The translations under genes and the position numbers were made by a program. The notes below the pieces were generated by a model, which was given only the letters and a program-made list of their open reading frames with translations, was not told the DNA's origin and ran no database searches. Positions 3,842 to 25,124 of a stretch of 32,000 nt of DNA are shown one piece after another (position 1 is the first letter of the stretch; every line of letters begins with the position of its first letter). Source of the stretch: Nostoc punctiforme PCC 73102 (GTDB taxonomy: Bacteria > Cyanobacteriota > Cyanobacteriia > Cyanobacteriales > Nostocaceae); the NCBI RefSeq assembly GCF_000020025.1, contig NC_010628.1, positions 5,970,001-6,002,000 of the forward strand, given 5' to 3'.

Positions 3842-5281
3842 ATGAGTGCCACTGTCAAAACCTTAGTCAACCAACCCTACAAGTACGGCTTTGTCACGGA
3901 CATTGAGGCCGACACTATTCCGCGTGGACTAGACGAGGACGTTATCCGCTTGATCTCCTCTAAGAAGAACGAGCCGCAGTTCATGCTCGACTTTCGTCTC
4001 AGAGCTTATCGCCAGTGGCAAAAAATGACGGAGCCAACTTGGCCGAATGTCAAGTATCCGCCAATAAATTATCAGGATATTATTTACTATTCAGCACCAA
4101 AACGTAAGAAAGAAAAGCTAAACAGCTTGGATGAAGTTGATCCAACCCTTTTAGAAACCTTCGAGAAGTTAGGCATTTCCCTATCTGAACAGAAGCGGCT
4201 AGCAAATGTCGCCGTTGATGCAATTTTTGATAGCGTTTCTGTCGCCACTACATTTAAAGAAAAGCTAGCGGAAGATGGCGTTATTTTCTGTTCGTTTTCC
4301 GAAGCGTTGCAAGAACACCCAGAACTGATCAAAAAATATTTGGGTAGCGTTGTTCCCATCGCTGACAATTATTTTGCTGCCTTGAACGCCGCCGTATTTA
4401 GCGATGGTTCTTTTGTCTATATTCCTAAAGGCGTAAAATGCCCAATGGAACTATCTACCTACTTCCGCATCAACTCTGGTGACACGGGACAATTTGAGCG
4501 GACTTTGATTGTCGCCGAAGAAGGTAGTTATGTTTCTTACCTCGAAGGTTGCACCGCACCGATGTATGATAGCAACCAACTACACGCCGCAGTTGTGGAA
4601 CTCGTCGCCCTCGACAACGCCGAAATTAAATACTCCACTGTACAAAACTGGTACGCTGGAGATGCTAATGGTAAAGGCGGTATTTACAACTTTGTCACCA
4701 AGCGCGGTTTGTGTCAGGGCGTAAATTCCAAGATTTCCTGGACTCAAGTAGAAACAGGTTCGGCAATTACTTGGAAATACCCTAGCTGTGTGTTGGTGGG
4801 TGATAACTCCGTGGGTGAGTTTTACTCTGTGGCGCTGACAAATCATCAGCAGCAAGCTGATACAGGTAGTAAGATGATTCACGTAGGTAAGAATACCCGC
4901 AGTACAATTATTTCTAAAGGAATCTCCGCAGGTAATTCTAGTAATAGCTACCGGGGTTTGGTGAAAGTTAATCCAACGGCGAATGGGGCGAGAAATTATT
5001 CTCAGTGTGACTCAATGCTGATTGGGGATAATGCCCATGCGAATACTTTCCCTTATATTCAGGTGCAAAATAACGGTGCGAAGGTGGAGCATGAAGCTTC
5101 TACTTCTAAGATTGGGGAAGATCAGTTATTTTACTTTGCTCAACGGGGTATTTCTTCAGAAGATGCCATTTCGATGATGATTAGCGGCTTCTGTAAGGAT
5201 GTTTTCAATCAGCTACCGATGGAGTTTGCTGTGGAAGCTGATAAGTTGTTGAGTTTGAAGTTGGAAGGCAGTGTTGGATAA
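3842..5281 (+). CDS. sufB: SufB, Fe-S cluster assembly scaffold
   Basis: 479-aa ORF. Strongly SufB-like throughout ([76 protein letters not shown]). First gene of the sufBCDS order. Confidence 0.95.
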
Positions 5282-5290
5282 GTGGCAGCA

Positions 5291-5331
5291 AGGATAAACA
5301 CAGAGACATCGGTGTTCTGTGTTTATCTTTT
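5291..5331 (+). terminator. Terminator-like hairpin inside the suf operon (sufB-sufC spacer)
   Basis: Stem gataaacacag (5293-5303) / ctgtgtttatc (5317-5327), extendable by 2 bp, with a 13-nt loop, followed by tcttttgg. It starts 10 nt after the sufB stop. Confidence 0.4.
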
Positions 5332-5342
5332 GGAAGAATCAA

Positions 5343-5385
5343 CGAACCGCAAAGGGCGCAAAGAGCGCAAAGAAAGAGAAGGGAG
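5343..5385 (+). repeat. Purine-rich short dispersed repeat, copy A (intergenic)
   Basis: cgaaccgcaaagggcgcaaagagcgcaaagaaagagaagggag. Built from (g)cgcaaag sub-repeats. About 90% identical to copy B at 6831-6869 apart from a 1-nt and a 3-nt gap. Confidence 0.7.
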
Positions 5386-5390
5386 AGAAG

Positions 5391-6182
5391 ATGATTATTG
5401 AAAATAGTGAAGTTGTGCTGTCGGTACGGAATCTGACGGCTAATGTTGATGGGACACCGATTTTGAAAGGTGTGAATCTTGAGGTGCGATCGGGTGAAAT
5501 TCATGCGATCATGGGGCCGAATGGTTCTGGTAAGAGTACTTTTTCTAAGGTGTTGGCTGGGCATCCGGCGTATGAGGTGACTGGCGGTGAGGTGATTTTC
5601 CAGGGGCAAAATCTCCTGGAGTTGGAACCGGAGGAACGCGCAAGAAGTGGTGTGTTTTTGGCGTTTCAGTATCCGTTAGAAATTCCGGGTGTGAGCAATT
5701 TGGATTTCTTGCGGGTGGCGTACAATTCCCGTCGGAAGGCGCAAGGTTTAGAGGAAATAGACGCTTTTGATTTTGACGATTTGATTGAGGAAAAGCTGGA
5801 TGTGGTGAAGATGAATGCCAGTTTTCTCAGTCGTAGTTTGAATGAAGGGTTTTCTGGTGGTGAGAAAAAGCGGAATGAAATTCTGCAAATGGCGTTGCTG
5901 GAACCAAAGTTAGGAATTTTGGATGAAACTGATTCGGGTTTGGATATTGACGCGCTCAGAATTGTGGCGAATGGGGTAAATCAACTGGCAAGTCCAGAAA
6001 ATTCGACAATTTTGATTACTCACTATCAAAGATTACTCGATTATATTGTGCCTGATTTTGTGCATGTGATGGCACAAGGGCAGATTATTACGAGTGGTGG
6101 TAAAGAACTGGCGCTGGAATTAGAGTCTCGCGGTTATGACTGGGTGCTAGAAGAATTTGCAGCTGCTGAGGTGGGTGTGTAA
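5391..6182 (+). CDS. sufC: SufC, Fe-S assembly ATPase
   Basis: Walker [13 protein letters not shown] signature FSGGEKKR, Walker [20 protein letters not shown] lies upstream of the ATG at 5391. The GTG at 5319 in the ORF track falls inside the hairpin and would translate the repeat, so it is rejected. Confidence 0.95.
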
Positions 6183-7555
6183 TGAATATTCAAGTATCTC
6201 CTAGTCCAATACCTAATTCAAATGCAGTCAGTTTGACATCGATGTTAGATAGAGATGATTATCTGACTGGGTTGTTAAATCAAGTAACAGCGACTAAAAC
6301 AGAAGGTTGGTTGCAGGAATTACGCCAAAGTGCCGCTAATTGGGTACGCCACTCGATTATCCCGACTACCCGCGAGGAAGAATGGCGATTTACTGATTTG
6401 TCGTCTCTACGAAAGGTGCAATTTAATATAGAGACGGTAAATTATGCGTCTTTAGAATTTGATATTTTGCCAGAGGCGGCTAATAGTCGTTTGGTATTTG
6501 TTAATGGCGTTTTTGCACCGGAGTTATCCGCAGTTTCAGATTTACCATCTGGAATTGTAGTGAGTAATTTGGCTGGTTTGTCTGTACTTGAGCAGGAAGG
6601 TGTACGGCAGTTTTTAGCTCAAGCTGAGGGAGCGCAGGAAGTTTTTACTGCTCTCAATACGGCTGGGATAACTGATGCAGCTGTGGTGTGGGTGAAGAAA
6701 AATGTGGTAGTTGAAACGCCAATTCATTTGGTGTTTATTTCGGTTGTGGGTGAAACGGCGACGATTTCGCAGCCGCGTTGTTTGGTGGTGGCGGAGAGTG
6801 GTTCGGAGGTGACGTTGGTTGAAGAGTATACGAACCGCAGAGGTGCAGAGAGCGCAGAGAAAGAGGGAGTATATTTCACCAATGCAGTTACGGAAGTTTG
6901 GGTTGGTGACAATGCCCAAGTGAGCCACACTAGGGTTGAGCAAGAAGGTGCAGAGGCTTTTCATATTGGGAAAACTGCGATCGCACAAGCTCGTGATAGT
7001 CGATATACTTGTCATGCCATAACTTTAGGTGCAAAGTTGTCGCGGCACAATTTAGAAATTTTGCAAACTGGCGAGCAGACACAAACTACTCTCAATGGTT
7101 TAACGATAATTTCTGGTAAACAATTGTCTGATACTCACAGTGCGATCGCACTCAATTATCCTCACGGTACAAGTGACCAATTGCATAAATGTATTGTAGG
7201 CGATCGCGCTCATGCGGTGTTCAATGGTAAAGTTTTTGTACCCAAACTAGCGCAGTTAACAAATGCATCCCAGTTGAATCGCAATTTGCTGCTATCGTCT
7301 AAAGCCAGAGTTGATACCAAACCCCAATTGGAAATTACTGCGGATAATGTTAAATGCGCTCACGGTGCTACTGTTAGCCAATTAGAAGATGACGAAATAT
7401 TCTATCTGCAAAGTCGGGGAATTGATGAAAACGATGCTCGGAAGTTGTTAATTAACGCCTTCGCTGCTGAAGTTATCAACCAAATACCGATTCCCTCTCT
7501 GCGAGAAATCCTTTTAAACACAGTGAATAATCTCAAGTCCCTGACTAATGAGTAA
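6182..7555 (+). CDS. sufD: SufD, Fe-S assembly protein
   Basis: 457-aa ORF whose start overlaps the sufC stop (TAATG). C-terminal SufB/D signature [28 protein letters not shown]. Correct position in the sufBCDS order. Confidence 0.92.
6831..6869 (+). repeat. Purine-rich short dispersed repeat, copy B (in frame within sufD)
   Basis: cgaaccgcagaggtgcagagagcgcagagaaagagggag, encoding [12 protein letters not shown] of SufD. See copy A. Confidence 0.7.
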
Positions 7556-7569
7556 TAACTAATCTACCA

Positions 7570-8832
7570 ATGACTTTTACTCCTACCAAAACCCTTGCTG
7601 ATAAAGTTCGCGCTGACTTCCCGATATTGCATCAGGAAGTCAATGAGAAACCCTTGGTTTATCTCGATAATGCTGCGACATCGCAAAAGCCTTTATTCGT
7701 ATTAAATACCCTACGGGATTATTACGAGCAATATAATGCTAACGTGCATCGAGGTGCCCATTCTCTGAGTGCTAAAGCTACTGATGCTTATGAAGGTGCT
7801 AGAGATAAAGTTGCCAAATTCATCAATGCTGCATCGCGTCAGGAAATTGTCTACACGCGCAATGCAAGTGAGGCGATTAACCTAGTAGCTTATAGCTGGG
7901 GAATGAATAATTTGCAGCCGGGAGATGAAATTATTCTGTCGGTGATGGAACACCACAGTAATATTGTGCCTTGGCAATTGGTGGCGCAAAAAACTGGCGC
8001 AGTACTTAAATTTGTGGAACTGACACCAGAAGAAACTTTTGATTTAGAACAGTTTAAAAAACTGATTTCTGAAAAAACAAAGTTAGTGTCAGTGGTACAT
8101 ATTTCTAATGCTTTGGGTTGCATTAATCCAGTTGAAGAAATTGGTGCGATCGCACATAAATACGGTGCTAAATTTTTAGTTGATGCTTGCCAAAGTGTTC
8201 CCCACTATCCTGTGGATGTGCAGAAAATAGATTGTGATTGGTTGGTAGCATCTGGTCATAAAATGTGCGCTCCAACTGGGATAGGATTTCTGTATGGCAA
8301 GTTGGAATTGTTAGAATCAATGCCGCCATTTTTTGGTGGTGGTGAGATGATTGCAGAGGTGTATTTAGACCATTCTACTTATGCAGAATTACCGCATAAA
8401 TTTGAAGCTGGTACACCTGCAATTGGAGAAGCGATCGCACTTGGTGCTGCGATCGATTATCTTAGCAGTATCGGCATGGATAAAATCCACGCCTACGAAG
8501 CAGAATTAACGGCTTATTTGTTCCAACAATTAGAGCAAATTCCCCAAATTAGAATTTACGGCCCCAAACCAAATGCAAAAGGTGAAGGTAGAGCCGCTCT
8601 TGCGTCATTCACAGCCGGAGAAGTTCACGCTAACGACTTATCTACATTATTAGATCAAGAAGGCGTTGCTATCCGTTCTGGACACCACTGCACGCAACCA
8701 TTACACCGTTACTTAGGTCTTGCTGCAACCGCACGAGCAAGTCTATCTTTCTACAACACCCGTGAGGAAATTGATATTTTCATCAAAGCACTGAAAGAAA
8801 CTCTTGACTTCTTTGCAGGTTTCCTTGCTTAA
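7570..8832 (+). CDS. sufS: SufS, group II cysteine desulfurase
   Basis: 420 aa. PLP-lysine motif [17 protein letters not shown], active-site Cys loop RSGHHCTQP, and N-terminal [11 protein letters not shown]. Confidence 0.95.
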
Positions 8833-8855
8833 AGTTACAAAATATTCCGATAGTG

Positions 8856-8901
8856 ATTGTGCCAAATATCAGCAACATATCTTGCTAATAGTTGGCACAA
8901 T
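8856..8901 (+). terminator. Hairpin after sufS (possible terminator or processing site)
   Basis: Perfect 10-bp arms attgtgccaa (8856-8865) / ttggcacaat (8892-8901) with a 26-nt loop, followed by ttaatt. The large loop and weak T-run lower confidence. Confidence 0.35.
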
Positions 8902-8935
8902 TTAATTATCTGGATTATTTACAGGAGTAACTCAA

Positions 8936-9544
8936 GTGTCATACAGTGACTTTACTTTAGATAGAGTTAGAAAAACCTTTGGACTAACTATTTCTGATAA
9001 AGTTGATATATTTGCATCTGTACATAAAATAGAGTGTCCACCATTACTTGCAGAACTATTGCGGGAAAATGTACCTTTAGCTCTTGCTAGTAATACAGAA
9101 AAATCTCGGTCAGAAATGATTATTGCACCAATCTTAATTGCTGTAAGAAAATATTTAAATAATCAAATAAGTTTATTTTCTGGTATCGATTTTACCGTTG
9201 ATTCAACACAAGGTTTAAATGGAAATTGCGATTTTATTATTAGCCGTTCGCCAGAGTTGCTAATTCTGAATGCACCAGTTATGACAATTGTAGAAGCTAA
9301 GAAAGAAAATATCAATGCAGGATTAGGTCAGTGTGTAGCAGAGATGTTAGCAGCTAAATTGTTTAATGAACGTGAAGGTAATAACATTCACACCATTTAT
9401 GGAACTGTCACCACTGGAACTAACTGGAAGTTTTTAAAACTTATTGGGCAAGTGATTGAAATTGACTTAAGCGAATATTATATTAATGACATAGGTAAAA
9501 TTATCGGGATTTTATCTAACATCCTGACAGAAGAAGTATTGTAA
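8936..9544 (+). CDS. Standalone PD-(D/E)xK nuclease-fold protein, HsdR N-terminal-domain-like
   Basis: 202-aa ORF with a GTG start 9 nt after AGGAG. Motif order SEMIIAPIL ... GNCDFIIS ... VMTIVEAKKEN ... GQCVAEMLAA follows the E...D...ExK...Q layout of type I restriction R-subunit N-terminal nuclease domains. Confidence 0.55.
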   Translation: MSYSDFTLDRVRKTFGLTISDKVDIFASVHKIECPPLLAELLRENVPLALASNTEKSRSEMIIAPILIAVRKYLNNQISLFSGIDFTVDSTQGLNGNCDFIISRSPELLILNAPVMTIVEAKKENINAGLGQCVAEMLAAKLFNEREGNNIHTIYGTVTTGTNWKFLKLIGQVIEIDLSEYYINDIGKIIGILSNILTEEVL

Positions 9545-9545
9545 T

Positions 9546-10178
9546 ATGCTTGTCAAGTCAACGCCTGCTGAACAAAGAACAGTGCTACAGAACATTACCT
9601 GGGAAACCTTTGAAGCCTTGCTGAGAGATACAGGTGAAGATAGAGGTTCTCGCTTTGCTTATGACTGCGGTGTTTTAGAAATCATGACTCCACTTTTTGA
9701 ACACGAAAATCCTAAAATTCAGTTTGACCGATTGATATTCGCTTTAGCAGTGGAATTAAAAACTAAAATTAGAAGTGCTGGTTCTACAACATTAAAACGT
9801 CAATCAATAACAAAAGGAATAGAACCCGATACTTGCTATTATATTCAAAATGAGCCACTAATTAGAGGTAAACAAGAATTAGATTTAACAACAGATCCAG
9901 CACCGGATTTAGCAGTTGAAATTGATATTACTAGCAGTTCTGTTAATAAATTTAATATTTATGCGGCTTTAGGTGTAGGAGAATTATGGAGATATGACGG
10001 TGAAGTTTTAAAATTTTATCAACTAATAGAAAGCGAATATATTGAGATTAAGTTGAGCAGAGCTTTTCCTTTAATTTCTGTTAGTGAGATGAATAGATTT
10101 ATCCAGCAAAGTAAAACTATGGATGAAATTGATCTGGTGCAATCTTTCAGCGCTTGGGTGCGTGGAAAGATAGCTTAA
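9546..10178 (+). CDS. Uma2-family (DUF820) endonuclease, copy 1
   Basis: 210 aa. W.TFE.L....G......AYD.GVLEIM.P...HE ... GIEPD.CYY ... PDLAVEIDITSSS ... Y..LGV.ELW.YD is the typical cyanobacterial Uma2 pattern. The start follows the upstream stop as TAAtATG. Confidence 0.85.
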   Translation: MLVKSTPAEQRTVLQNITWETFEALLRDTGEDRGSRFAYDCGVLEIMTPLFEHENPKIQFDRLIFALAVELKTKIRSAGSTTLKRQSITKGIEPDTCYYIQNEPLIRGKQELDLTTDPAPDLAVEIDITSSSVNKFNIYAALGVGELWRYDGEVLKFYQLIESEYIEIKLSRAFPLISVSEMNRFIQQSKTMDEIDLVQSFSAWVRGKIA

Positions 10179-10208
10179 AATCATAAATTAATTACGAATT
10201 ATTTTAAT

Positions 10209-10841
10209 ATGCTTGTCAAGTCAACGGTTGGTGAACAAAGAACAGTGCTACATAACATTAGCTGGGAAACCTTTGAAGCCTTGTTGAGAGATACAGGTGA
10301 AGATAGAGGTTCTCGGTTTGCTTATGACTGCGGTGTTTTAGAAATCATGACTCCACTTTTTGAACATGAAAACCCCAAAAGTAATTTTGGTAATTTTATT
10401 ATTGCTTTAGCTGAAGAATTAGGAATTGAAATTAGAAGCGCTGGTTCTACAACATTGAAGCGGAAAATATCAAAGCGGGGAATAGAGCCAGATACTTGCT
10501 ACTATATCCAGAATGAACTAGCTATTAGGGGTAAGCAAACTTTAGATTTAGAAAATGATCCACCGCCTGACTTAGCAATTGAGATTGACATTACCAGTAG
10601 TTCAGTTAACAAATTAGGGATTTATTCAGCGTTGGGTGTAATTGAACTTTGGAGATATGATGGTCAAAATTTGAAATTTTATCAGTTGGTAGAAGGGCAA
10701 TATGTCGAGTGTAAGCTTAGTATTGCCTTTCCTATAGTTTCAGTGAGTGAGATAAGCAGATTTATTGAGCAGAGTAAAAGTATCGGAGAAATTGCTTTAC
10801 TCAAATCATTTCGTGCTTGGGTGAGGGAAAAGATAAGATAA
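10209..10841 (+). CDS. Uma2-family (DUF820) endonuclease, copy 2 (tandem paralogue)
   Basis: Also 210 aa, with the same motifs (PDLAIEIDITSSS). The first ~170 nt are ~93% identical to copy 1 and the remainder is clearly more diverged. Confidence 0.85.
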   Translation: MLVKSTVGEQRTVLHNISWETFEALLRDTGEDRGSRFAYDCGVLEIMTPLFEHENPKSNFGNFIIALAEELGIEIRSAGSTTLKRKISKRGIEPDTCYYIQNELAIRGKQTLDLENDPPPDLAIEIDITSSSVNKLGIYSALGVIELWRYDGQNLKFYQLVEGQYVECKLSIAFPIVSVSEISRFIEQSKSIGEIALLKSFRAWVREKIR

Positions 10842-10875
10842 TGGAGTCGAGAATTTAACCTTTTTTAGGTAAAAT

Positions 10876-11952
10876 TTAGTGTATCTTGTCCACAAATAAT
10901 TCTATCTCTTCTAAAGCTTGTGAGTAGTTACTAATAGGAAGTCTAACAACACTACCATCTGGCATTATATATTTAGACTCTTTGGGAAGCATAGACATAG
11001 GAATTCCAAGAGACGATGATACTTTACCCGATGTGTGAAAATCTTTTATGCCTGAAAAATAATAGTTTTCCCATTCCTTACTAGAAGTTGGGGTATGTTG
11101 ACAAGGTGCAAATAATGAAGGAAATTTATTAAATTGCTCGTAACAAAAATCAATTAGTTCTGTTCTTATAGAATCAAATGCTGTTGCGACTCCATCCTTA
11201 ATTGTATAGTTATTAAAAACAAACTCGTAAATTAGTGGCAATTTCAGTTGAAAGTGTTCTACTTGATTATTAAAAGTAATGATACCATCAGCATACTGTT
11301 TCAAAGCGGCAGAAGGATATTTCCCAAAAAGTAGCATAAAAAGACTTTTTATGCCTTCAAGAGAGCTAAAATCTGCCATCATTGGAACCACAATTTTATC
11401 TGAAGAAACTAGAGCCATTTGTGTATACATAGAAAAGCTAGGATTGCAATCTATAAAAACAACCATATCCTTATAAGTTTCACTATTATACTCATATTCA
11501 CATAATCTTCTTATAGCCGTCATGTATTCTGACCATGCTTTTATATTTGCCGGATTAATGACTGCATAGTTTAAAGCTAATGAAAGAGATTCTAAAAAAG
11601 AATCACCAGCTATTAAATATAAATTTTCCGAGATATTTGGATTGTAACGGTACACTGGAACTTGATATGAAGTATTAGGTTTTCGGAAGTTTGAGTTTCC
11701 CTTTAAAAGCCAATCTATAAACCCAACTATGTTTTTTCTAGTAGCTGAAGATTGTAGCCTCTGATTGATTTGGTATCCCTTTTTCCCTCCTCCAAGCAAA
11801 AATTGAGAGATATTTGCTTGAGGACACATATCAATAACTAAAACTTGGGTTTTTGGGTTTTTTTCAGCATAAAGTGTTGCAGCGTTAGAACAAAGCGTTG
11901 TTTTACCAACACCACCTTTATTGTTGTAAAAGGCATAAATACTAATGCTCAT
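10876..11952 (-). CDS. ParA/MinD-superfamily P-loop ATPase with C-terminal extension (orphan)
   Basis: Deviant Walker A YNNKGGVGKTT, A-prime VLVIDMCPQAN, Walker B VVFIDCNPS. About 358 aa from the ATG at 11952 (GAGGAA upstream), preferred over the TTG at 11967. By eye ~33% GC, well below its neighbours. Confidence 0.8.
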   Translation of the reverse strand: MSISIYAFYNNKGGVGKTTLCSNAATLYAEKNPKTQVLVIDMCPQANISQFLLGGGKKGYQINQRLQSSATRKNIVGFIDWLLKGNSNFRKPNTSYQVPVYRYNPNISENLYLIAGDSFLESLSLALNYAVINPANIKAWSEYMTAIRRLCEYEYNSETYKDMVVFIDCNPSFSMYTQMALVSSDKIVVPMMADFSSLEGIKSLFMLLFGKYPSAALKQYADGIITFNNQVEHFQLKLPLIYEFVFNNYTIKDGVATAFDSIRTELIDFCYEQFNKFPSLFAPCQHTPTSSKEWENYYFSGIKDFHTSGKVSSSLGIPMSMLPKESKYIMPDGSVVRLPISNYSQALEEIELFVDKIH

Positions 11953-14849: not shown

Positions 14850-17132
14850 ATGCAAGCTAAATTCAATCCACTGCAAGTTATTATCAACCCACCTGGAATT
14901 CAATTTGGAATGCCAGGAGATACTATTGAACTCTATATTGTTGTGATCAATCAAGGAGACCAAGATGCGGTTATTGATTTACATTTTGTTTTTGACGAAG
15001 TATTTCAAAATTTAACCGGTTGGTCTAGTTCTCCTAGAGAAAGTTTAGCATTAGCTTCCCAACAGAATAGCGACGAAGTAAGATTTGAGTTTCAAATTGC
15101 CGCAAATACTCTTCCCGGAACCTATGACTATACATTAGTCGTAGATTCACCTCTACATTATCCTCAAGATACACCCATAACCTTCCCAAACCAAATTAAG
15201 GTTCTGCTACAAGAACAGACTGCAATTCGGGTGAATGACCCGACATTTTCCATTAGACCTAACACCAACCCCAACAAGCCGCTAATTTTCAATCCTAGTG
15301 AGCCTCTGCAAGTAGAGGTTATAGTTGATAATCGCTCTTATCTCGTCGATAGGTTCCGCTTGAGTTGTCCAGATTTAGACGAAAACTGGTTCACAATTAA
15401 TTACCCTGCAAGTGGATACGAAGGTTCTGGATTGGTATCTGAAGTTACTGCACTAGAACTAAACCCTGGTACTAAAGGTCAAATATTGTTGAAATTTCAC
15501 CCACCTGGGGATACACTTGCAGGAAGCTATTCTCCTACAATCCGCTTGTATTCGGAGAACTCTCCCGACTTAGTACTACTAGACTTGGTGTACATTCAAA
15601 TTCCGACAAATTATCGCTTAGATATAGAACTTCATACGATTTTGGGACAAGTTAGCCGTAGTCTGGGCAAGTATGAATTATCACTAGCGAACCAGGGTAA
15701 TATTGTCCGTGAACTGATATTAAGCTTAAAAAGTCGAGACGAAGAAGAACTATATACTTACAAATTTGATCCGGCTGAAATAAGATTATTACCAAATAGA
15801 AGTGCTGTGGCCAACTTGACGGTCAAACCCAGACCTTGGTGGCGAAAACCGTGGTTTGGCTCAGGGTTGGTGGTTAACTTTCAACTCGACATCAAAGACC
15901 AAAAAAATTTACCCCTACCTAACACATTGCCTCAAGGCAGCTTGATATGGAAACCCCGTCCTTTGTGGCAATTTATTCTGTTAATTTTGGTAATTTTGGG
16001 ATTATTAGGAGGAATAGGATTTATCATTTGGCGAATTTTAAATCCCTATCCTTTAAAATTAGAAAATTTTAGTGCAAAAGATTCTCAAATTACTGAAGGT
16101 GATGAGGTTGCTTTGAACTGGGAGATTCACCACTATAAACAGTTGCAAAAGTTGGTTCTGACTGCTAAAGGTTCCCAACCCATTGAGCCTATTACCTATG
16201 ACTTTAGCAATGGCATTCCTGAAGCACTGGGTAAGGGAAGTACACCTCTTTGTCAGATACAAGAAGAACAAGAGCTTATTTGTAGCAACGTGAAAACTGG
16301 AGTGAAAACAAAAGGAAATTACACTTTTCAGTTACAAGCCTCTTATCAAAATGGTATACAGTTATTTTCTCGAACCAATCAAGTAGCAACCCAAACAACT
16401 CAAGTAGAAATAGCTGAGAAACCAATTGCTGAAGTTGTTAATTTTCAAGCAGATAAACCACAGTATACAAAAGGTCAAAATATTCTTTTAAGTTGGACTA
16501 TTGCGCGTCCATTACTGCTGCAACAAATTCAAATTGCTGGCAGTGCAGATGATGAGACATCCTACGGCGAACCAATTGTTTATAAAATTAATCAAGGCAA
16601 TCTTGCAGACCCCAAGCTTAAAAAGCTATGTACACAACAAAATCAAGAGCTACGATGTATAAATATTCCTATACCTGCATATAAAGCAGGAAAATTTGCC
16701 TTTCAAATCAAAGCTTTTTCTAATGGAAGTCAAAAAACTAGTTTTAAAAAGACTGAATCTAAAATAGAAATTTTACCAAAACCATTTAGGATTGTTTCTT
16801 TCACAATCAACGGTAGCGATCAACCAAATCTGGTTCTCAATGAAGGAACAACTGCTACCCTGAGTTGGAGAGTAGAAGGGGAAAAAGGAAATATTCAAGT
16901 TAAACTTTTGCCATACGGCGATGAAGTTGCATTAAGTGACTCAAAGCAGTTTCCAGTTAATTTAGCCTTCCCACCTCAAATCACTCTGCAAGTTAATGAT
17001 ATATCTAATAAGCAACCACCCCAGCAAAAAGGATTTGTAATCACAGTCCTCAAAAAAGTAGTACCTACTCCTATACCTACAATTAACTCGATTCCACCTA
17101 ACTCATCTCAAAGCCCCTTACCTCTAAGGTAA
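14850..17132 (+). CDS. Single-pass membrane protein paralogous in its N-terminal half to the upstream gene, with three C-terminal Ig-like repeats
   Basis: 760 aa, starting 13 nt after the upstream stop with AAGAGAG upstream. N-terminal segments resemble those of the 744-aa protein (MPGDTIELYIVVINQGDQD; LELNPGTKGQILLKFHPPGDTLAGSY; ...KPRPW before the TM). TM WQFILLILVILGLLGGIGFIIW (about nt 15963-16034). Three ~95-120-aa repeats follow. Confidence 0.7.
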   Translation: MQAKFNPLQVIINPPGIQFGMPGDTIELYIVVINQGDQDAVIDLHFVFDEVFQNLTGWSSSPRESLALASQQNSDEVRFEFQIAANTLPGTYDYTLVVDSPLHYPQDTPITFPNQIKVLLQEQTAIRVNDPTFSIRPNTNPNKPLIFNPSEPLQVEVIVDNRSYLVDRFRLSCPDLDENWFTINYPASGYEGSGLVSEVTALELNPGTKGQILLKFHPPGDTLAGSYSPTIRLYSENSPDLVLLDLVYIQIPTNYRLDIELHTILGQVSRSLGKYELSLANQGNIVRELILSLKSRDEEELYTYKFDPAEIRLLPNRSAVANLTVKPRPWWRKPWFGSGLVVNFQLDIKDQKNLPLPNTLPQGSLIWKPRPLWQFILLILVILGLLGGIGFIIWRILNPYPLKLENFSAKDSQITEGDEVALNWEIHHYKQLQKLVLTAKGSQPIEPITYDFSNGIPEALGKGSTPLCQIQEEQELICSNVKTGVKTKGNYTFQLQASYQNGIQLFSRTNQVATQTTQVEIAEKPIAEVVNFQADKPQYTKGQNILLSWTIARPLLLQQIQIAGSADDETSYGEPIVYKINQGNLADPKLKKLCTQQNQELRCINIPIPAYKAGKFAFQIKAFSNGSQKTSFKKTESKIEILPKPFRIVSFTINGSDQPNLVLNEGTTATLSWRVEGEKGNIQVKLLPYGDEVALSDSKQFPVNLAFPPQITLQVNDISNKQPPQQKGFVITVLKKVVPTPIPTINSIPPNSSQSPLPLR

Positions 17133-19632: not shown

Positions 19633-21081
19633 TCACAAAACATAACTCAACGATTTGACGCAATCAACTGCTTGTGTATCCATAGAGAGGGGAATTTCAA
19701 TCCAGAATTCAGTACCATGCCCGGGTTCTGATACACATTTCAGTCTTCCCCTATGTTTTTCAACTACAATTTGATAGCTAATTGACAAACCTAGCCCTGT
19801 ACCCTTACCCACAGGCTTAGTTGTGAAAAATGGATCAAACAGTCGTTCTTTAACTGCTTCTGTCATTCCTGAACCATTATCGGCAATTCGAATAACACAG
19901 TTCGTTTCAATGACTTCTGTAATAATTTTAATTATATTCGGACTGGCATGAATTTCTGCGATCGCGCGTTTATCGTTATGACTTTCGAGTGCATCGATGG
20001 CATTACTGATAATATTCATGAACACTTGATTGAGTTGTCCGGCGTAGCAATCTACCAAAGGCAAGTTTCCATAGTTTTTAACTACTTTGATCCCAGGATG
20101 ATCTACGCTATTTTTAAACCGATTTTGTAAAATCAGCAAGGTACTATCTAGTCCGTGATGAATATCAACCTTTTTCATTCCTGCTTCATCAAGACGAGAG
20201 AAGTTCCGCAGAGACAAGACAATTTCAGAGATCCTTTCGGCTCCTACTTGCATCGAATCTAGAATTTTGGGCAAATCATCTCGTAAAAAATCTAATTCGA
20301 TTTCATTAATGCATTCTTTAATTTCTGGCACAGGATTGGCATAAAATTGCTGGTAAAGAAGCACAAGCTTTAGCAAACACTGTGTATAATCTTTTGTATA
20401 TTTTAAATTCCCGTAAATAAAGTTAACGGGGTTGTTAATTTCGTGAGCAACTCCTGCAACCAACTGCCCCAAGCTGGACATTTTCTCAGCCTGAACCAAT
20501 TGGGCTTGAGTTTGCTGTAGCTCCCGGAGGGATTTTTCCAATCTTTTAGCCTGAGCCTCAGCAATTTCCGCTAGATTCTCCTTAATTTGCAGCGCACTCC
20601 GCAGTTGTGCCCTTTGTTGTTTCAGTTCGCTTGTTAACTTTTTGGCATCACCCAAAGCGGTGTTTTGAGATTGTAGTAAAAACAGAAAATCAACTATTGG
20701 GTCGTGAATCGCAAAGTCTTTGAGTTTGATACCCAAAGGAGCCAAGCTAGTTGTATCTGTAATCCAGGGAGAACCTAAAAAAAATATTACCTCCTCCTCT
20801 GGTTGATACATCATCTGACCCTTGAGCTGCATTCCATTGTGGAGAAACTCTAAAATAAATAGGGCACGAGGCTGTTTACTAATAGCATCAAAATCAATCA
20901 GAATCTTTGGACGGTTAATTTGAAAATGTTGCTCAATCAATTTACCAACTAATGGCTCAGGACTAATGCGTTCCAAGACCTCACCAGTTTGTACAATTTC
21001 ACGATTACGGCTAAATGCAAAGTGGAAGGGAAAAGCTTTCGCCAGTAACTCTGGTGAAAGCGTAAGGTGAGGAGGAGCCAT
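19633..21081 (-). CDS. Soluble histidine kinase with N-terminal HNOBA (H-NOX-associated, PAS-like) domain
   Basis: 482 aa. The N-terminus aligns by eye with the sGC beta1 HNOBA region (MQLKGQMMYQPEEEVIFFLGSP ... FAIHDPIVDFLFL vs [22 protein letters not shown] ... IPLHDATRDLVLL). A coiled coil follows, then H-box VAGVAHEINNPVNFI, N-box NIISNAIDAL, G1 IADNGSGM, G2 GKGTGLGLSIS. It starts 10 nt after the H-NOX stop. Confidence 0.9.
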   Translation of the reverse strand: MAPPHLTLSPELLAKAFPFHFAFSRNREIVQTGEVLERISPEPLVGKLIEQHFQINRPKILIDFDAISKQPRALFILEFLHNGMQLKGQMMYQPEEEVIFFLGSPWITDTTSLAPLGIKLKDFAIHDPIVDFLFLLQSQNTALGDAKKLTSELKQQRAQLRSALQIKENLAEIAEAQAKRLEKSLRELQQTQAQLVQAEKMSSLGQLVAGVAHEINNPVNFIYGNLKYTKDYTQCLLKLVLLYQQFYANPVPEIKECINEIELDFLRDDLPKILDSMQVGAERISEIVLSLRNFSRLDEAGMKKVDIHHGLDSTLLILQNRFKNSVDHPGIKVVKNYGNLPLVDCYAGQLNQVFMNIISNAIDALESHNDKRAIAEIHASPNIIKIITEVIETNCVIRIADNGSGMTEAVKERLFDPFFTTKPVGKGTGLGLSISYQIVVEKHRGRLKCVSEPGHGTEFWIEIPLSMDTQAVDCVKSLSYVL

Positions 21082-21091
21082 GCTGCTACAC

Positions 21092-21643
21092 TCAATTTGG
21101 TTTATAAATCACTAAAAATTCATCATGTTCAGCACCTTCATCCCGATTCTGGGTTTGGGTAATATGAACTTCTGTATCAAACCTTGTCCCCAATCCTTTG
21201 ATTAGACCAATAACCATTGGAGTTAGCCCTTCTCGATCAGAACGATAGTGTAAACTTAGAGAATTTTCCTCCATATCAGTACACTCAAATGATGGGGGCT
21301 GGAGTTTAGGAAAGCTAACTCCTACACGAGCATGAAGATTGTCGAGGTTTTCTAAAAACTCAGGCAATGTATCTCCACTCATGTCCAGCATTTCACCATA
21401 GCCTTCTTGTGCTGTGTACTGAACCCAGAATTCCCCAAAGGCTTGCATAATTTGTTTGGGAGATAAACTTAGAATGACACTAGCAGCTTTTACCAACTTG
21501 TGGGTGATGTCATCGGGATAGCCTTCCATACTGAGGAAAACATCTACGTCCACCTCTGCTTTGTGCTTAATTTGTTTCCAAGTCTCTTCGCCAAAACGAC
21601 TGCATACCATGTCTTGAATCGCCTTGTTCACTAAACCGTACAT
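21092..21643 (-). CDS. H-NOX (heme nitric oxide/oxygen binding) sensor protein
   Basis: 183 aa. N-terminus MYGLVNKAIQDM, proximal-His context LENLDNLHARVG, and heme-propionate motif Y-x-S-x-R (HYRSDR). Closely resembles the structurally characterised Nostoc H-NOX. Confidence 0.95.
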   Translation of the reverse strand: MYGLVNKAIQDMVCSRFGEETWKQIKHKAEVDVDVFLSMEGYPDDITHKLVKAASVILSLSPKQIMQAFGEFWVQYTAQEGYGEMLDMSGDTLPEFLENLDNLHARVGVSFPKLQPPSFECTDMEENSLSLHYRSDREGLTPMVIGLIKGLGTRFDTEVHITQTQNRDEGAEHDEFLVIYKPN

Positions 21644-21947
21644 GGAAGCCTCCTGATGACTACACCTAATTTTGCTTTGTGAATTTGCCCAAGACTCGAC
21701 AACTAATTTCTTAAAAAGATTATTTTAATGACAAAATTTTCTGTAGTTATACTTTGAAAATGCTTTATTACAGATTTAAAATCCCAAAAAAACAAGTAAA
21801 ACTGTTTGTATTCTAATGCTACAAATCCTCATTGTTACAACCGTATTTTTACTTATTGCTTTGCCCAGCTAGTTTTGAGGATTTGTAGTAAGGACTTTAG
21901 TGCTTACTACAAACTTATTTACCCATCAATTTAAACTTGACACAATA

Positions 21948-22682
21948 CTACAGCAATGCATCAAAATGCACCCATGAATCAGGATACAAGCTGTATTTAG
22001 AGATTTGACGCTGAATTCCATTAAAAAATTGGACACGCGCATCCATAGCTTCTACAATAGCCAGTTTTACCTTGATATCCTCCTCATTCATGGGAATTCG
22101 AGGTTCAATCACTGCTGCTAGCTTTGCTGCATGACTATCATCTACATCAATATGGACTTCAAAAAAGATCAGGGCTTCTTTGGGTAAGGGAGTAGCACCA
22201 ATAATTCCTTTATATAGTTGCGTGTAGAGTGAGCTAACAATCCCTTCGGAAGCATAACAGACAGCACCCAGTGCAGCTAAGTAGCCATATTTATGTGGTA
22301 TCTGCAAGTAAGTTTCAATCAGGGCACGAGTTTCAGGTGCAGTGGGTAGTGCTGCCAAAGTTTCGTCGTCGATACCAAGGGCGCGGGTAAATTGACGAAA
22401 CAACTCTGGGTGGGACTGAGTTATATCTCCTTGTCCCATTTCGTCAAAGAGGTTTTCTAAGATGACTAACTGACTACTTTCATCTTCGCAACAAGATAAG
22501 ATGCTAGCTAAAATCCGATTAAATTCTTTGGAGAATTTGTACATCTGAACAGCTAGTATCTGTACGTCTGGTAAAAATAAATTTCCAGCCCGACAACGGA
22601 TTAGGAACTCATGGCTCCATAGAGGATGATTAACCGTTATTTCACGGAAGGAATTTATCACTAAAGAAGATGTCTGTGTCAT
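21948..22682 (-). CDS. Heme-oxygenase-like diiron oxidase/oxygenase (HDO) family protein
   Basis: 244 aa, all-helical-looking. Candidate ligands E81-x9-H91, E146, H177-x3-D181-x2-H184 (own numbering) reproduce the six-ligand HDO pattern. The start overlaps the upstream methyltransferase stop (ATGA). Confidence 0.7.
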   Translation of the reverse strand: MTQTSSLVINSFREITVNHPLWSHEFLIRCRAGNLFLPDVQILAVQMYKFSKEFNRILASILSCCEDESSQLVILENLFDEMGQGDITQSHPELFRQFTRALGIDDETLAALPTAPETRALIETYLQIPHKYGYLAALGAVCYASEGIVSSLYTQLYKGIIGATPLPKEALIFFEVHIDVDDSHAAKLAAVIEPRIPMNEEDIKVKLAIVEAMDARVQFFNGIQRQISKYSLYPDSWVHFDALL

Positions 22683-23446
22683 CGTAATATTTGTAGGGCT
22701 AGATGAAGTGGTTGGTCAAGCAAGGGGCTAAAAAATGATTTGTCTACTGCGATATGTTCTGAAGTTACACGCAATTCCTGTAAAATTGGCATAGTATTAA
22801 AGCCAGCAATTCTAAGGGCATTAAAATAATCTTCAAGAGTTTTGTGAATCAATTGGACATTTAACCAGGAGCCATCTCGTTTCCAAATACGACCAGGAAA
22901 CTGCTGATCTCGATTACTAAAATAGCCTGCACCCTCAACTTGAAAATAAAACGGATATGCTGCCTCCCGCATATATGGAAAAGATGGATGGGGAACGCTA
23001 AATACAAATCGACCGCCGGGACGAAGAATGCGTGCAACTTCTGCCATACATTCTTGGGTTTGAGAAATTGTCAAATAGTTAAATAGAAATACTGCAACAA
23101 CTAAGTCAATTTCGCTATCATCAAACCGCTTGAGATTGGTAGCACATCCTACTTCGTAGCTAATACTTAAAGGATGTTCTACTTCTTGCAACTTTGCGGC
23201 TTCAATCATGCCTTGGGAAAGGTCTATTCCATATACTTGTGCAGCACCACGCCTATGTAATTCTCGACTGCAATAACCTTCTCCACAACCTATATCAACT
23301 ACTCGCAGTCCACTAACAGGCTCACAAAGCTCTAGTACAGAAGGGCGTGCTGTAAAGTCTGAGAGAGAACTAGGTTCTCCTCTAATCCAGTCTGATGCTG
23401 TGTGATTGTATAAGTTTATAGTTGAGTCTTTGTGATTATTTGACAT
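22679..23446 (-). CDS. Class I SAM-dependent methyltransferase (coupled to the HDO gene)
   Basis: 255 aa. Motif I VVDIGCGEGYCS, post-I YGIDLS, motif II/III LVVAVFLFNYL and LRPGGRFVFSV. Confidence 0.8.
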   Translation of the reverse strand: MSNNHKDSTINLYNHTASDWIRGEPSSLSDFTARPSVLELCEPVSGLRVVDIGCGEGYCSRELHRRGAAQVYGIDLSQGMIEAAKLQEVEHPLSISYEVGCATNLKRFDDSEIDLVVAVFLFNYLTISQTQECMAEVARILRPGGRFVFSVPHPSFPYMREAAYPFYFQVEGAGYFSNRDQQFPGRIWKRDGSWLNVQLIHKTLEDYFNALRIAGFNTMPILQELRVTSEHIAVDKSFFSPLLDQPLHLALQILR

Positions 23447-23943
23447 TTTTAACTATCTATTTATATTAGATTTATGTTGCTTTTAACCAATCGGGGTTTA
23501 GTAAGTATTAAATACTGTATATGTTTTAACATTTTGCTAATTTAATGCTAATGTTGATTTTACTGATTTTTGTTTTCTGGTTAATTTTGTGTTAAAAAAG
23601 CATAGTTTTCAAGATATAACCTAGTTCAAATATTCTAAACTTTTTAATTTCTTCAAATAGAAAAAAATTAATATAATCAGGCTTCATGAAGTTTTCGGAA
23701 TACTTAGTTAATGCCTACTCCACACATAAATACTTTGAGGTTTAAACCTTACCTTTACATATACTTTACTAATCTGGTTAAAATTAACTCTTTAAATCAA
23801 GATAAAAAATAGAAAGTAAACAGTATATTTTACGAAGTATAAGGAGAATAATCTTGTTAGGTTGTAATAGTCAGATCGTTTTTAAAATGAAATGGCTTGG
23901 GATGTATGAGTGATTTAAATAATTTAGAATAACCTTGGAAGAT

Positions 23944-24948
23944 ATGATGTTACAAAAACTGTTAGCCAAGTCAGTAGTGGGCGATCGCGTAGAATACGAT
24001 CGGGCGATCACATTCTCTCAACTTGGCGATCAACTCTTTGATGAACTTGCTGATAAAATTGCTACAAGACGACAGTATCGGCTACTGTTTGAACACACAT
24101 TAAAGGCTGAGTTGTTCCAGCAGATCCGCATTGCTGCTGCTGGTTATATTTCAGGATGTCTGAATAGTCACATAATTCTTTCAGAAGCTGAAATGCTTGA
24201 ACGACTATTGGAAACAAGAAATACATTACCGAACTACACCGGCACTGGTCTTTTGATGCCTAAGCGAGAACATACTCTCGCATTTAACCTTTTTCAAAAA
24301 AGCGTAGCTGAGGCTTTCTACCAACTAGGAGCAAATGAACTGATTGATGCAGTAGATTTACCAGTCAATCTCCGTATGGTTTATGGTAAAACTGACGCAA
24401 AAAAATTGAGTTTACCCTTCGCTAGCTCAAAATGCCATAGCGATGTCTGGGCAGGTGTTGCAGCTGATGCGACTGTAGTAGTTCTGCCACTATTTGGCGA
24501 CATCGATAATATAACCATTGAAGCAGGTGAGATGCCCCGCGAGATGGAACTACAGTCTATGCAAGTGATGTCAGACTTCGATGAAGGTCGGGATGTTCCA
24601 ATGGTTGTCTCCTATACAGAAGCACAACTACAACATGGCACAATGTACTTCAATGATGCCCGTGGATTGCACCAAACAGTAAGAAGGAAAACTGAAGGTC
24701 TAAGGATTTCTGTAGATTTCCGGTTTCGCAGGAAATTCAATGAAGCTTACCGGGCAATGGTAGCACCTAGTATTGGTGGTGTTGAAGAAGATATGAGCGT
24801 GCCTTATGAAGACTGGCTGAAAGTTGGTAAGGAAACGCTAATTGTGTTTGATGAAAGTTGTGAACAAGCCAGAAAAAAACACAATTCTGGCGCTCCAGTT
24901 CCTCTATATACTCGTGGGTATCGCCTTGTAGAAATGTTCAACTCTTAA
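23944..24948 (+). CDS. Fe(II)/2-oxoglutarate-dependent oxygenase-like protein (tentative)
   Basis: The ORF-track protein carries H168-S-D170 ... H246 ... R257-I-S259, i.e. an HxD...H facial triad plus RxS about 11 residues after the distal His. ATG at 23944 is preferred over the TTG at 23935. The assignment is motif-based only. Confidence 0.5.
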   Translation: MMLQKLLAKSVVGDRVEYDRAITFSQLGDQLFDELADKIATRRQYRLLFEHTLKAELFQQIRIAAAGYISGCLNSHIILSEAEMLERLLETRNTLPNYTGTGLLMPKREHTLAFNLFQKSVAEAFYQLGANELIDAVDLPVNLRMVYGKTDAKKLSLPFASSKCHSDVWAGVAADATVVVLPLFGDIDNITIEAGEMPREMELQSMQVMSDFDEGRDVPMVVSYTEAQLQHGTMYFNDARGLHQTVRRKTEGLRISVDFRFRRKFNEAYRAMVAPSIGGVEEDMSVPYEDWLKVGKETLIVFDESCEQARKKHNSGAPVPLYTRGYRLVEMFNS

Positions 24949-24976
24949 CTTTCAGAAATACAAGTAACAAAAAAGC

Positions 24977-25000
24977 AAGAGGTCTGATATCAGACCTCTT
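24977..25000. terminator. Perfect 24-nt palindromic hairpin, terminator of the 2OG-oxygenase-like gene
   Basis: aagaggtctgat|atcagacctctt, flanked by an A-run upstream and tttatcaattttt downstream, 29 nt after the stop. Confidence 0.65.
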
Positions 25001-25102
25001 TATCAATTTTTATCATCCATAGACCTAGATTGATAAATTTTGCGATAGTCTAATTTTCCGAAATAAAAAACAGATTTTTTGTAGTATTAACTCTCAACAA
25101 AA

Positions 25103-25124
25103 AAGAGGTCTGTTTCAACCTCTT
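25103..25124 (-). terminator. Rho-independent terminator of apcC
   Basis: On the minus strand: aagaggt-tgaaacag-acctctt followed by ttttgttg, about 35 nt after the apcC stop. Confidence 0.65.

Follow-up and report, generated by a model that had tools for sequence, protein, structure and literature searches.

A methyltransferase, diiron oxidase and putative oxygenase cassette adjoining H-NOX sensor genes in Nostoc punctiforme, other cyanobacteria and high-GC bacteria

We analysed a 32,000-nucleotide stretch of the Nostoc punctiforme PCC 73102 genome (contig NC_010628.1, positions 5,970,001 to 6,002,000 of the forward strand), here called the window; coordinates are those of the window unless a locus is named. 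It contains a cassette of three genes, encoding a class I S-adenosylmethionine (SAM)-dependent methyltransferase (MT), a heme-oxygenase-like diiron oxidase/oxygenase (HDO), and ORF3, a member of an unannotated family and a putative PhyH-like Fe(II)/2-oxoglutarate (2OG) oxygenase. The three genes are inherited, lost and fused as one unit, and this unit recurs in operons with the gene of an H-NOX (heme nitric oxide/oxygen binding) sensor. It is likely that the trio and H-NOX signalling are truly coupled in function. Tentatively, and with considerable reservation, we favour the reading that H-NOX obtains a ligand from a small N- or O-oxidised metabolite made by the trio. None of the enzyme superfamilies is new, while the cassette, the ORF3 family and the coupling to H-NOX appear to be undescribed.

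Organisation and conservation of the cassette

The MT gene (22679..23446, reverse strand, 255 aa) is joined to the HDO gene (21948..22682, reverse strand, 244 aa) by an ATGA stop/start overlap, visible in the sequence. ORF3 (23944..24948, forward strand, 334 aa from its ATG) lies on the other side of an AT-rich divergent spacer (23447..23943), in which both promoters are presumably situated. The original prediction had placed all three genes here, with tight coupling of MT to HDO and a spacer of about 490 bp; all this stands (the spacer has 488 bp and 24% GC), and all the residues it listed are present, including H168, D170, H246, R257 and S259 of ORF3. These numbers count from an alternative start, a TTG at 23935 that gives 337 aa in the list of open reading frames (ORFs). 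The ATG at 23944 is favoured by the homologues and by an identical NCBI protein (P0121), and the numbering from ATG is used below.

The same prediction had described the cassette as free of any attached regulator. This is not the case. Downstream of HDO, after a gap of 304 bp, there is a gene for an H-NOX sensor (21092..21643, reverse strand, 183 aa; Pfam HNOB, PF07700, 194.7 bits, 1.3e-57), followed after 10 bp by the gene of an HNOBA-HisKA-HATPase histidine kinase (HK; 19633..21081, reverse strand, 482 aa; Pfam HNOBA 2e-29, HisKA and HATPase_c), an arrangement similar to that of HnoX-HnoK. The heme ligand His104 of the H-NOX protein, and Tyr133 and Arg137 of the YxSxR heme-propionate motif, are invariant in seven module-linked H-NOX proteins. 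The link between the cassette and the sensor is conserved across phyla.

Conservation was counted in 80 species-representative cyanobacterial loci. ORF3, MT, HDO, H-NOX and HK occur all together in 68 of them, whereas the outer flanking genes vary. MT and HDO are always paired, the trio adjoins H-NOX in 74 loci, and most loci without the full set are cut by contig ends. Three Nostoc-type metagenome contigs (L091-L093) retain the synteny apcE-A-B - H-NOX - HK - FtsW at 84-94% DNA identity and lack the region of about 21.9-25.1 kb of the window. The missing block of 3.2 kb comprises ORF3, the spacer, MT and HDO only; its boundaries fall at 21875-21940 on the left and 25069-25098 on the right. 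Nostoc strains that cleanly lack the cassette can serve as natural knock-outs. No plasmid-borne copies of the cassette were found.

In some lineages HDO and ORF3 are fused into a single protein (P0225, P0231, P0240, P0242). The HDO::ORF3 fusions have 554-564 aa in Pleurocapsales-like cyanobacteria and 631-666 aa in bacteria of 62-67% GC. Together with the counts above and the single indel block, they bear out the co-conservation of the trio that had been expected from the N. punctiforme sequence.

The link to H-NOX is observed in several gene orders. In Nostocales, ORF3 is divergent from a run MT-HDO-HNOX-HK. A locus of Leptolyngbyaceae (L072) has ORF3, MT, HDO, an HNOBA-GAF-PAS-GGDEF-EAL gene, H-NOX and HK, all collinear, and in L081 the order is MT, HDO::ORF3, HNOB and a gene for an HNOBA-HK-response regulator (RR) protein. 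On two contigs of 65-67% GC (L082, L086) and in the P0398 locus, HNOB, HDO::ORF3 and MT are found beside a divergent HK-RR gene. In L082 and the P0398 locus there is a 4-bp overlap between the end of HNOB and the beginning of HDO::ORF3; in L086 the two genes are 20 bp apart. Finally, on a contig of 74% GC (L087), HNOB, HDO, ORF3 and MT are unfused and overlapping, beside a Ser/Thr kinase gene. Compared with the window orthologues, the high-GC module genes have identities of 55-60% for MT, 42-49% for ORF3, 41-47% for H-NOX and 22-30% for HDO. The recurrence of the trio with H-NOX in rearranged, fused and translationally coupled form argues against mere inherited synteny.

An additional sample of metagenome H-NOX genes, restricted to low-GC loci with adequate flanks, was binned by identity to the window H-NOX. 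The trio is present in 16 of the 19 loci whose H-NOX is at least 74% identical to that of the window, but in only one of 16 in the 60-73% band. Thus the trio accompanies one subclade of H-NOX, and the others can do without it.

Two of these loci types carry further genes. In L072 (Drouetiella), a 933-aa HNOBA-GAF-PAS-GGDEF-EAL protein is encoded between HDO and H-NOX (8783-11584 of that locus), and since the HK is present as well, this locus carries both a cyclic di-GMP output and a kinase output; the GGDEF-EAL protein is reminiscent of the operons that join H-NOX to diguanylate cyclases. Judged by position, L071 has the same insert of about 3 kb. In L082 (10714-12596) and L086 (8684-10640), MT is followed by a conserved convergent pair, one gene being for a FAD_binding_3 monooxygenase and the other for an unannotated protein (about 190-210 aa). 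This pair may belong to the same pathway.

The three proteins

The MT matches Methyltransf_25 (80.8 bits, E 1.2e-22) and Methyltransf_11 (79.3 bits, E 3.5e-22) of Pfam. Its motif I of the GxGxG type, VVDIGCGEGY, occupies residues 49-58, and YGIDLS begins at residue 72. The nearest solved relatives in the PDB are N-methyltransferases, ToxA (5e-17) and PEAMT (1e-13). By sequence, the protein is a generic class I SAM enzyme, and this does not tell whether the acceptor is N, O or C.

The 244-aa protein scores 97.8 bits (E 8e-28, cut-off 28.9) on the Pfam family PF14518, Haem_oxygenas_2. With this value, and those of about 1e-22 for Methyltransf_25 and Methyltransf_11, neither the HDO nor the MT assignment is due to chance. 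The predicted metal site is E81/H91/E146/H177/D181/H184. All six ligands are invariant in 18 cyanobacterial orthologues and also in a cross-phylum alignment of six sequences that includes bacteria of 62-74% GC, and each is aligned with its counterpart in the E-H-E-H-D-H set of CADD. The AlphaFold2 (AF2) model is all-helical (pLDDT 89, pTM 0.86), and its Foldseek matches are CADD, UndA, HrmI, BesC and FlcD, with TM scores of 0.74-0.77. The protein is thus, by sequence and model, an HDO of the metal branch with the full 3His/3carboxylate set, as had been proposed, and diiron/O2 activity is predicted for it. Placement in the non-metal TenA/PqqC branch, considered as an alternative, is ruled out by the ligand set and by the ranking of Pfam families, TENA_THI-4 scoring only 40 bits.

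A profile built from HDOs of several lineages ranks the PDB proteins as follows: BesC (4e-24), NePabS and CADD (about 3e-23), HrmI (8e-9), FlcD (about 2e-6), UndA (4e-5) and SznF (0.1). With the single Nostoc HDO as the query, SznF is not among the PDB matches at E<=1. The special likeness to SznF claimed in the original prediction is not supported. The ligands Glu215, His311, Asp315 and His318 given there for SznF agree with the published ones (PMC7848743); however, the spacing of the ligands is superfamily-wide, CADD included, and the profile match is not significant.

SznF has a 3His/4carboxylate site, the seventh ligand being a Glu from auxiliary helix 2 (Glu189; PMC7848743). No Asp or Glu is conserved across lineages at HDO residues 30-66, where a seventh carboxylate of the SznF/RohS type was looked for, although the auxiliary helix aligns poorly; E53 is specific to Nostocales and replaced by K, W, R or N in other lineages. 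This does not exclude N-oxygenation, because HrmI is an N-oxygenase with a 3His/3carboxylate site (PMC13108848). For the same reason, the rule that N-oxygenases have an extra Glu was dropped as a discriminator. The high-GC HDOs (L082, L085, L086, L087) have an insert of about 60 residues between E81 and H91 (alignment columns 98-165) that is absent from cyanobacterial HDOs.

ORF3 is more difficult to classify. It has no match in Pfam or NCBIfam at E<=1, and no sequence match in the PDB either by phmmer or with a 34-sequence profile. Alignment with a PhyH domain by hhalign is non-significant (E 0.36), though the aligned segment is the distal-His motif. The family comprises 389 cluster representatives at E<=1e-3 and has no Pfam model. 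Among 34 relatives with 23-45% identity, H165, H243 and R254 are invariant, and D167 is conserved in at least 90%, being replaced otherwise by E. S256, which is S259 in the TTG numbering, is not conserved. The spacing of 11 residues between H and R equals that of human PhyH, where we take the residues to be H264 and R275. In the AF2 model (pLDDT 75, pTM 0.81) the HxD loop is poorly modelled. Foldseek retrieves only 2OG oxygenases and halogenases, mostly of the PhyH class (KanJ, FtmOx1, AndA, CurA-Hal, P3H1), with E values of about 1e-4 and TM scores of only about 0.3.

A further, indirect and independent line of support comes from two genomes of the Acaryochloris type. Here, MT and HDO are followed by a gene of a TauD-family Fe/2OG oxygenase that replaces ORF3 (L079, 8869-9918; L134, 2300-3349). 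The TauD proteins of the two genomes share 75% identity, and their nearest solved relatives are FrbJ and gamma-butyrobetaine dioxygenase. Next after the TauD gene, L134 has a gene of the class-V aminotransferase fold.

Thus the Fe(II)/2OG assignment of ORF3 made in the original prediction is moderately supported. The conserved H, D/E, H and R, the PhyH-class structural matches and the TauD replacement speak for it, whereas the serine of the proposed RxS motif is not conserved, no profile matches and the TM scores are low. Given the conserved motif, the PhyH-class matches of the model at this TM level and the lack of a sequence match, we consider ORF3 a likely, though unproven, Fe(II)/2OG oxygenase, and its 2OG dependence is what we infer from these data.

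Distant members of the ORF3 family occur in other contexts (P0254, P0275, P0278, P0302; L083, L088). Some are fused to weak MT-like domains or to a genuine PhyH domain. Single-domain relatives with about 29% identity are found in clusters of sugar-nucleotide/polysaccharide, glycosyltransferase or radical-SAM genes. These relatives probably do something else, and the ORF3 family probably covers several functions. For enzymology, the cassette offers a clade of HDOs near BesC and CADD that is uncharacterised, together with an oxygenase-like family that fuses with HDO, MT-like and PhyH domains.

Possible roles of the cassette

The H-NOX protein of Nostoc has long been a structural model for the mammalian nitric oxide (NO) receptor. 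With the trio in common operons with H-NOX across distant phyla, the question of where NO signalling through cyanobacterial H-NOX gets its NO, and what it is for, comes down to three genes. Full-text literature searches retrieved no link between HDO, SznF or 'iron-containing redox enzyme' and H-NOX, and, in the library searched, no described H-NOX operon with biosynthetic oxygenases. In a 2026 mini-review of HDOs, the strings 'cyanobacteri', 'methyltransferase' and 'nitric oxide' do not occur. The genomic arrangement does not tell which way the coupling between the trio and H-NOX runs.

One possibility is that the trio produces the ligand of the sensor. MT, HDO and ORF3 would then form one O2-dependent pathway acting on a small, probably amino-acid-like precursor, as a dedicated accessory of NO sensing by H-NOX and the HNOBA kinase. 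Known systems suggest, by analogy, a basic amino acid or related amine as the probable substrate. The precursor would be methylated by MT and then oxidised in sequence by ORF3, as an Fe(II)/2OG enzyme, and by the diiron HDO. We infer this order, and propose sequential oxidation because known pairs of an HDO and a mononuclear-iron enzyme act in this manner (BesD/BesC, HrmI/HrmJ, and the two domains of SznF). The pathway would yield a diffusible N- or O-oxidised compound, either the end product itself or a piece split off from it, which would act as ligand of the ferrous heme in the H-NOX encoded alongside; NO, an NO donor and a nitroso compound are the candidates. The sensor would in turn modulate the HNOBA kinase and, in some genomes, the HNOBA-GGDEF-EAL protein as well. 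The net result would be a self-made signal for the NO sensor with no NO synthase needed. In its most far-reaching form, namely an NO-synthase-free route to NO or another ferrous-heme ligand (an NO donor or a C-nitroso metabolite) for the cell's own H-NOX, making up a self-contained synthase-plus-receptor gas-signalling module spread horizontally among cyanobacteria and high-GC bacteria, this proposal is somewhat unlikely.

Ligand production is favoured because the SznE/SznF layout of an MT, an HDO and an iron barrel, linked to NO, gives a precedent. In the streptozotocin N-nitrosourea pathway the methyltransferase SznE works with the HDO SznF. The title of a paper by He et al. 2019 links a pair of the SznE/SznF type to NO. 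The second domain of SznF is a 3-His cupin, independent of 2OG; ORF3 differs from it in having the HxD/E...H...R motif typical of 2OG oxygenases. SznF also has the extra ligand Glu189, for which no conserved equivalent is seen in the cassette HDOs, and its sequence similarity to them is non-significant. HDOs include N-oxygenases, and in SznF, which acts on N-methyl-arginine, the HDO is joined to a C-terminal mono-iron beta-barrel domain (PMC7848743). This domain layout is mirrored by the HDO::ORF3 fusions of the cassette orthologues.

The other known pairs are similar in part. In Streptomyces cattleya, the Fe(II)/2OG enzyme BesD and the HDO BesC act successively on an amino-acid side chain in the pathway of 4-chloro-allylglycine and terminal-alkyne amino acids. 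BesC heads the PDB matches of the cross-lineage profile, but the window HDO scores only 35.7 bits on the BesC equivalog model NF042919, with a cut-off of 500. ORF3 has no detectable sequence similarity to any solved 2OG enzyme, and the Bes pathway has neither a methyltransferase nor H-NOX. In the nitrocyclopropyl-alanine pathways, an HDO N-oxygenase is paired with an Fe/2OG enzyme on lysine (HrmI/HrmJ, BelK/BelL). HrmI is a structural neighbour of the window HDO (TM 0.76), and both have 3His/3carboxylate sites. On the other hand, the sequence match is weak (E 8e-9), HrmI has an extra N-terminal domain (362 aa), and its pathway also lacks MT and H-NOX.

Several observations weigh against ligand production. 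The HDO is closest to BesC and to p-aminobenzoate (pABA) synthases of the CADD type, with SznF barely detectable, and enzymes of the BesC and CADD types perform C-C cleavage or radical chemistry. The lack of a conserved seventh carboxylate in the auxiliary-helix region points the same way, although it is not decisive. A SznF-type N-methyl-N-nitroso product would make a poor self-signal, as it would be genotoxic. The genomic link is not strict either. In L029 the trio is kept and H-NOX and HK are lost. In five Nostocales species (L059, L063, L066, L067, L077; at about 5.8-8.7 kb in each locus), MT-HDO is directly preceded by a gene of the DHDPS family (class I aldolase/dehydratase-like), which seems to take the place of ORF3; H-NOX and HK are absent from these loci, as is ORF3 itself. 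Two high-GC contexts without H-NOX contain HDO::ORF3, MT, MgtC and a beta-lactamase-fold gene. Finally, many H-NOX/HK pairs have no trio. As each occurs alone, neither the trio nor H-NOX needs the other.

The same facts can be read in the opposite direction, with the trio as the output of the sensor. The metabolite that it makes could then serve as a signal, protectant or symbiosis factor, and H-NOX would switch the synthesis on or off in response to outside NO. Control could be exerted through co-transcription, or by H-NOX binding the enzymes directly, in the way it controls kinases and diguanylate cyclases. This explanation is only slightly less probable than ligand production, though itself somewhat unlikely. 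In lineages of 65-74% GC, hnoX is predicted from the layout to be co-transcribed with the enzymes and not, as in canonical H-NOX operons, with the kinase; the frames overlap in L082, the P0398 locus and L087, and the kinase gene is divergent or absent. Co-transcription of this kind is the pattern usually used to name an H-NOX effector. That the trio exists without H-NOX and H-NOX/HK without the trio is expected of an optional output, and the HDO is more similar to the C-C-cleaving BesC/CADD clade than to N-oxygenases. However, we know of no precedent for H-NOX regulating a non-signalling enzyme, and it would be left unexplained why an enzyme family known for N-O chemistry adjoins an NO sensor. 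Either outcome would be new, being an enzyme route that feeds an NO sensor or the first metabolic pathway under H-NOX control.

The symbiotic context has been read in favour of an outside source of NO. According to Warshan et al. 2017 (PMC5702739), contact with moss induces H-NOX and the kinase of N. punctiforme within a 12-gene co-located 'Heme NO-binding' regulon, and six gene families of this regulon are missing from a strain unable to form the moss symbiosis. The authors assumed NO to be host-derived, which agrees with regulation of the trio by H-NOX, and they left the enzymes of the regulon uninterpreted. The presence or absence of the cassette may bear on the absence of the region from the non-symbiotic Nostoc strain, as reported there.

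The proposal closest to the original prediction, namely that the cassette is an independent tailoring unit for a small modified amino acid, takes no part in signalling and adjoins H-NOX through inherited synteny or co-transfer, is unlikely. It is consistent with the clean presence/absence block, with the occurrence of the cassette without H-NOX in several contexts, and with the distant ORF3-family members in sugar and polysaccharide clusters. But it does not account for adjacency in at least four gene orders, with fusions and overlapping frames, in both cyanobacteria and bacteria of 65-74% GC, nor for the fact that H-NOX similarity tracks the presence of the trio.

It is very unlikely that the iron enzymes use or remove NO, that is, consume NO or an NO-derived metabolite by nitrosation, nitration or clearance, with H-NOX and HK as the cognate sensor. 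Such a role would fit the operon link between the trio and H-NOX; two-component sensors are commonly encoded beside the enzymes that handle the compound they detect, and NO binds readily to non-heme iron centres. However, the known detoxification systems are flavodiiron proteins, Hmp or Nor, not HDO, and it is hard to see what a SAM methyltransferase or a 2OG-type oxygenase would contribute to removing NO.

Finally, a self-sacrificing pABA synthase for folate is highly improbable: CADD and NePabS are the closest solved structures to the Nostoc HDO (E 2e-12, TM 0.76 and 0.87) and it scores 90.3 bits on NCBIfam fol_rel_CADD (TIGR04305), but this falls far short of the cut-off of 200, the positions of the sacrificial Tyr27 and Lys152 of CADD (PMC13108848) are taken by Leu27 and Leu156, of which Leu27 is at least 90% conserved in the 18 cyanobacterial orthologues, and no role is left for MT, ORF3 or H-NOX.

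Regulatory signals and other features of the window

Upstream regions and intervals were searched for known signals. In the scan of the window, promoter-like and terminator matches show no excess over shuffled sequence. The Rfam search for riboswitches and other RNA elements upstream of the genes gave a single, chance-level match at E<=1. NtcA boxes (GTA-N8-TAC) are absent from the spacers, and their window-wide counts are at chance. In the interval between HDO and hnoX, no terminator was found except a hairpin without a U-tract.

Candidate hairpins are situated at both edges of the cassette indel. An inverted repeat with a 15-bp stem lies right after the HDO stop (21882..21913, reverse strand), at the left edge. 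At the right edge (24970..25124) there are two copies of a terminator-like, G+C-rich hairpin AAGAGGTCTG-loop-CAGACCTCTT arranged as a direct repeat, one at 24970-25000 after ORF3 and the other at 25096-25124 after apcC. Because the edge of the indel falls between the copies, these hairpins may mark a recombination site or be paired terminators.

The flanks of the locus are housekeeping genes, with ftsW on one side, apcC-B-A-E on the other and sufBCDS farther off. The proteins of the same region in Nostoc sp. LEGE 12447 are 96-99% identical to those of the window. The sufBCDS operon (3842-8832) is closely followed by a tandem array of three ORFs (8936-10841), each about 200-210 aa long and at least one of them encoding a Uma2-family putative endonuclease. 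The gene of a 744-aa WD40-repeat protein is immediately followed by a 760-aa ORF (14850-17132) without a match in Pfam. The GC skew in the sufC/sufD region (5001-7000) is unusually high (0.29-0.36) compared with the rest of the window.

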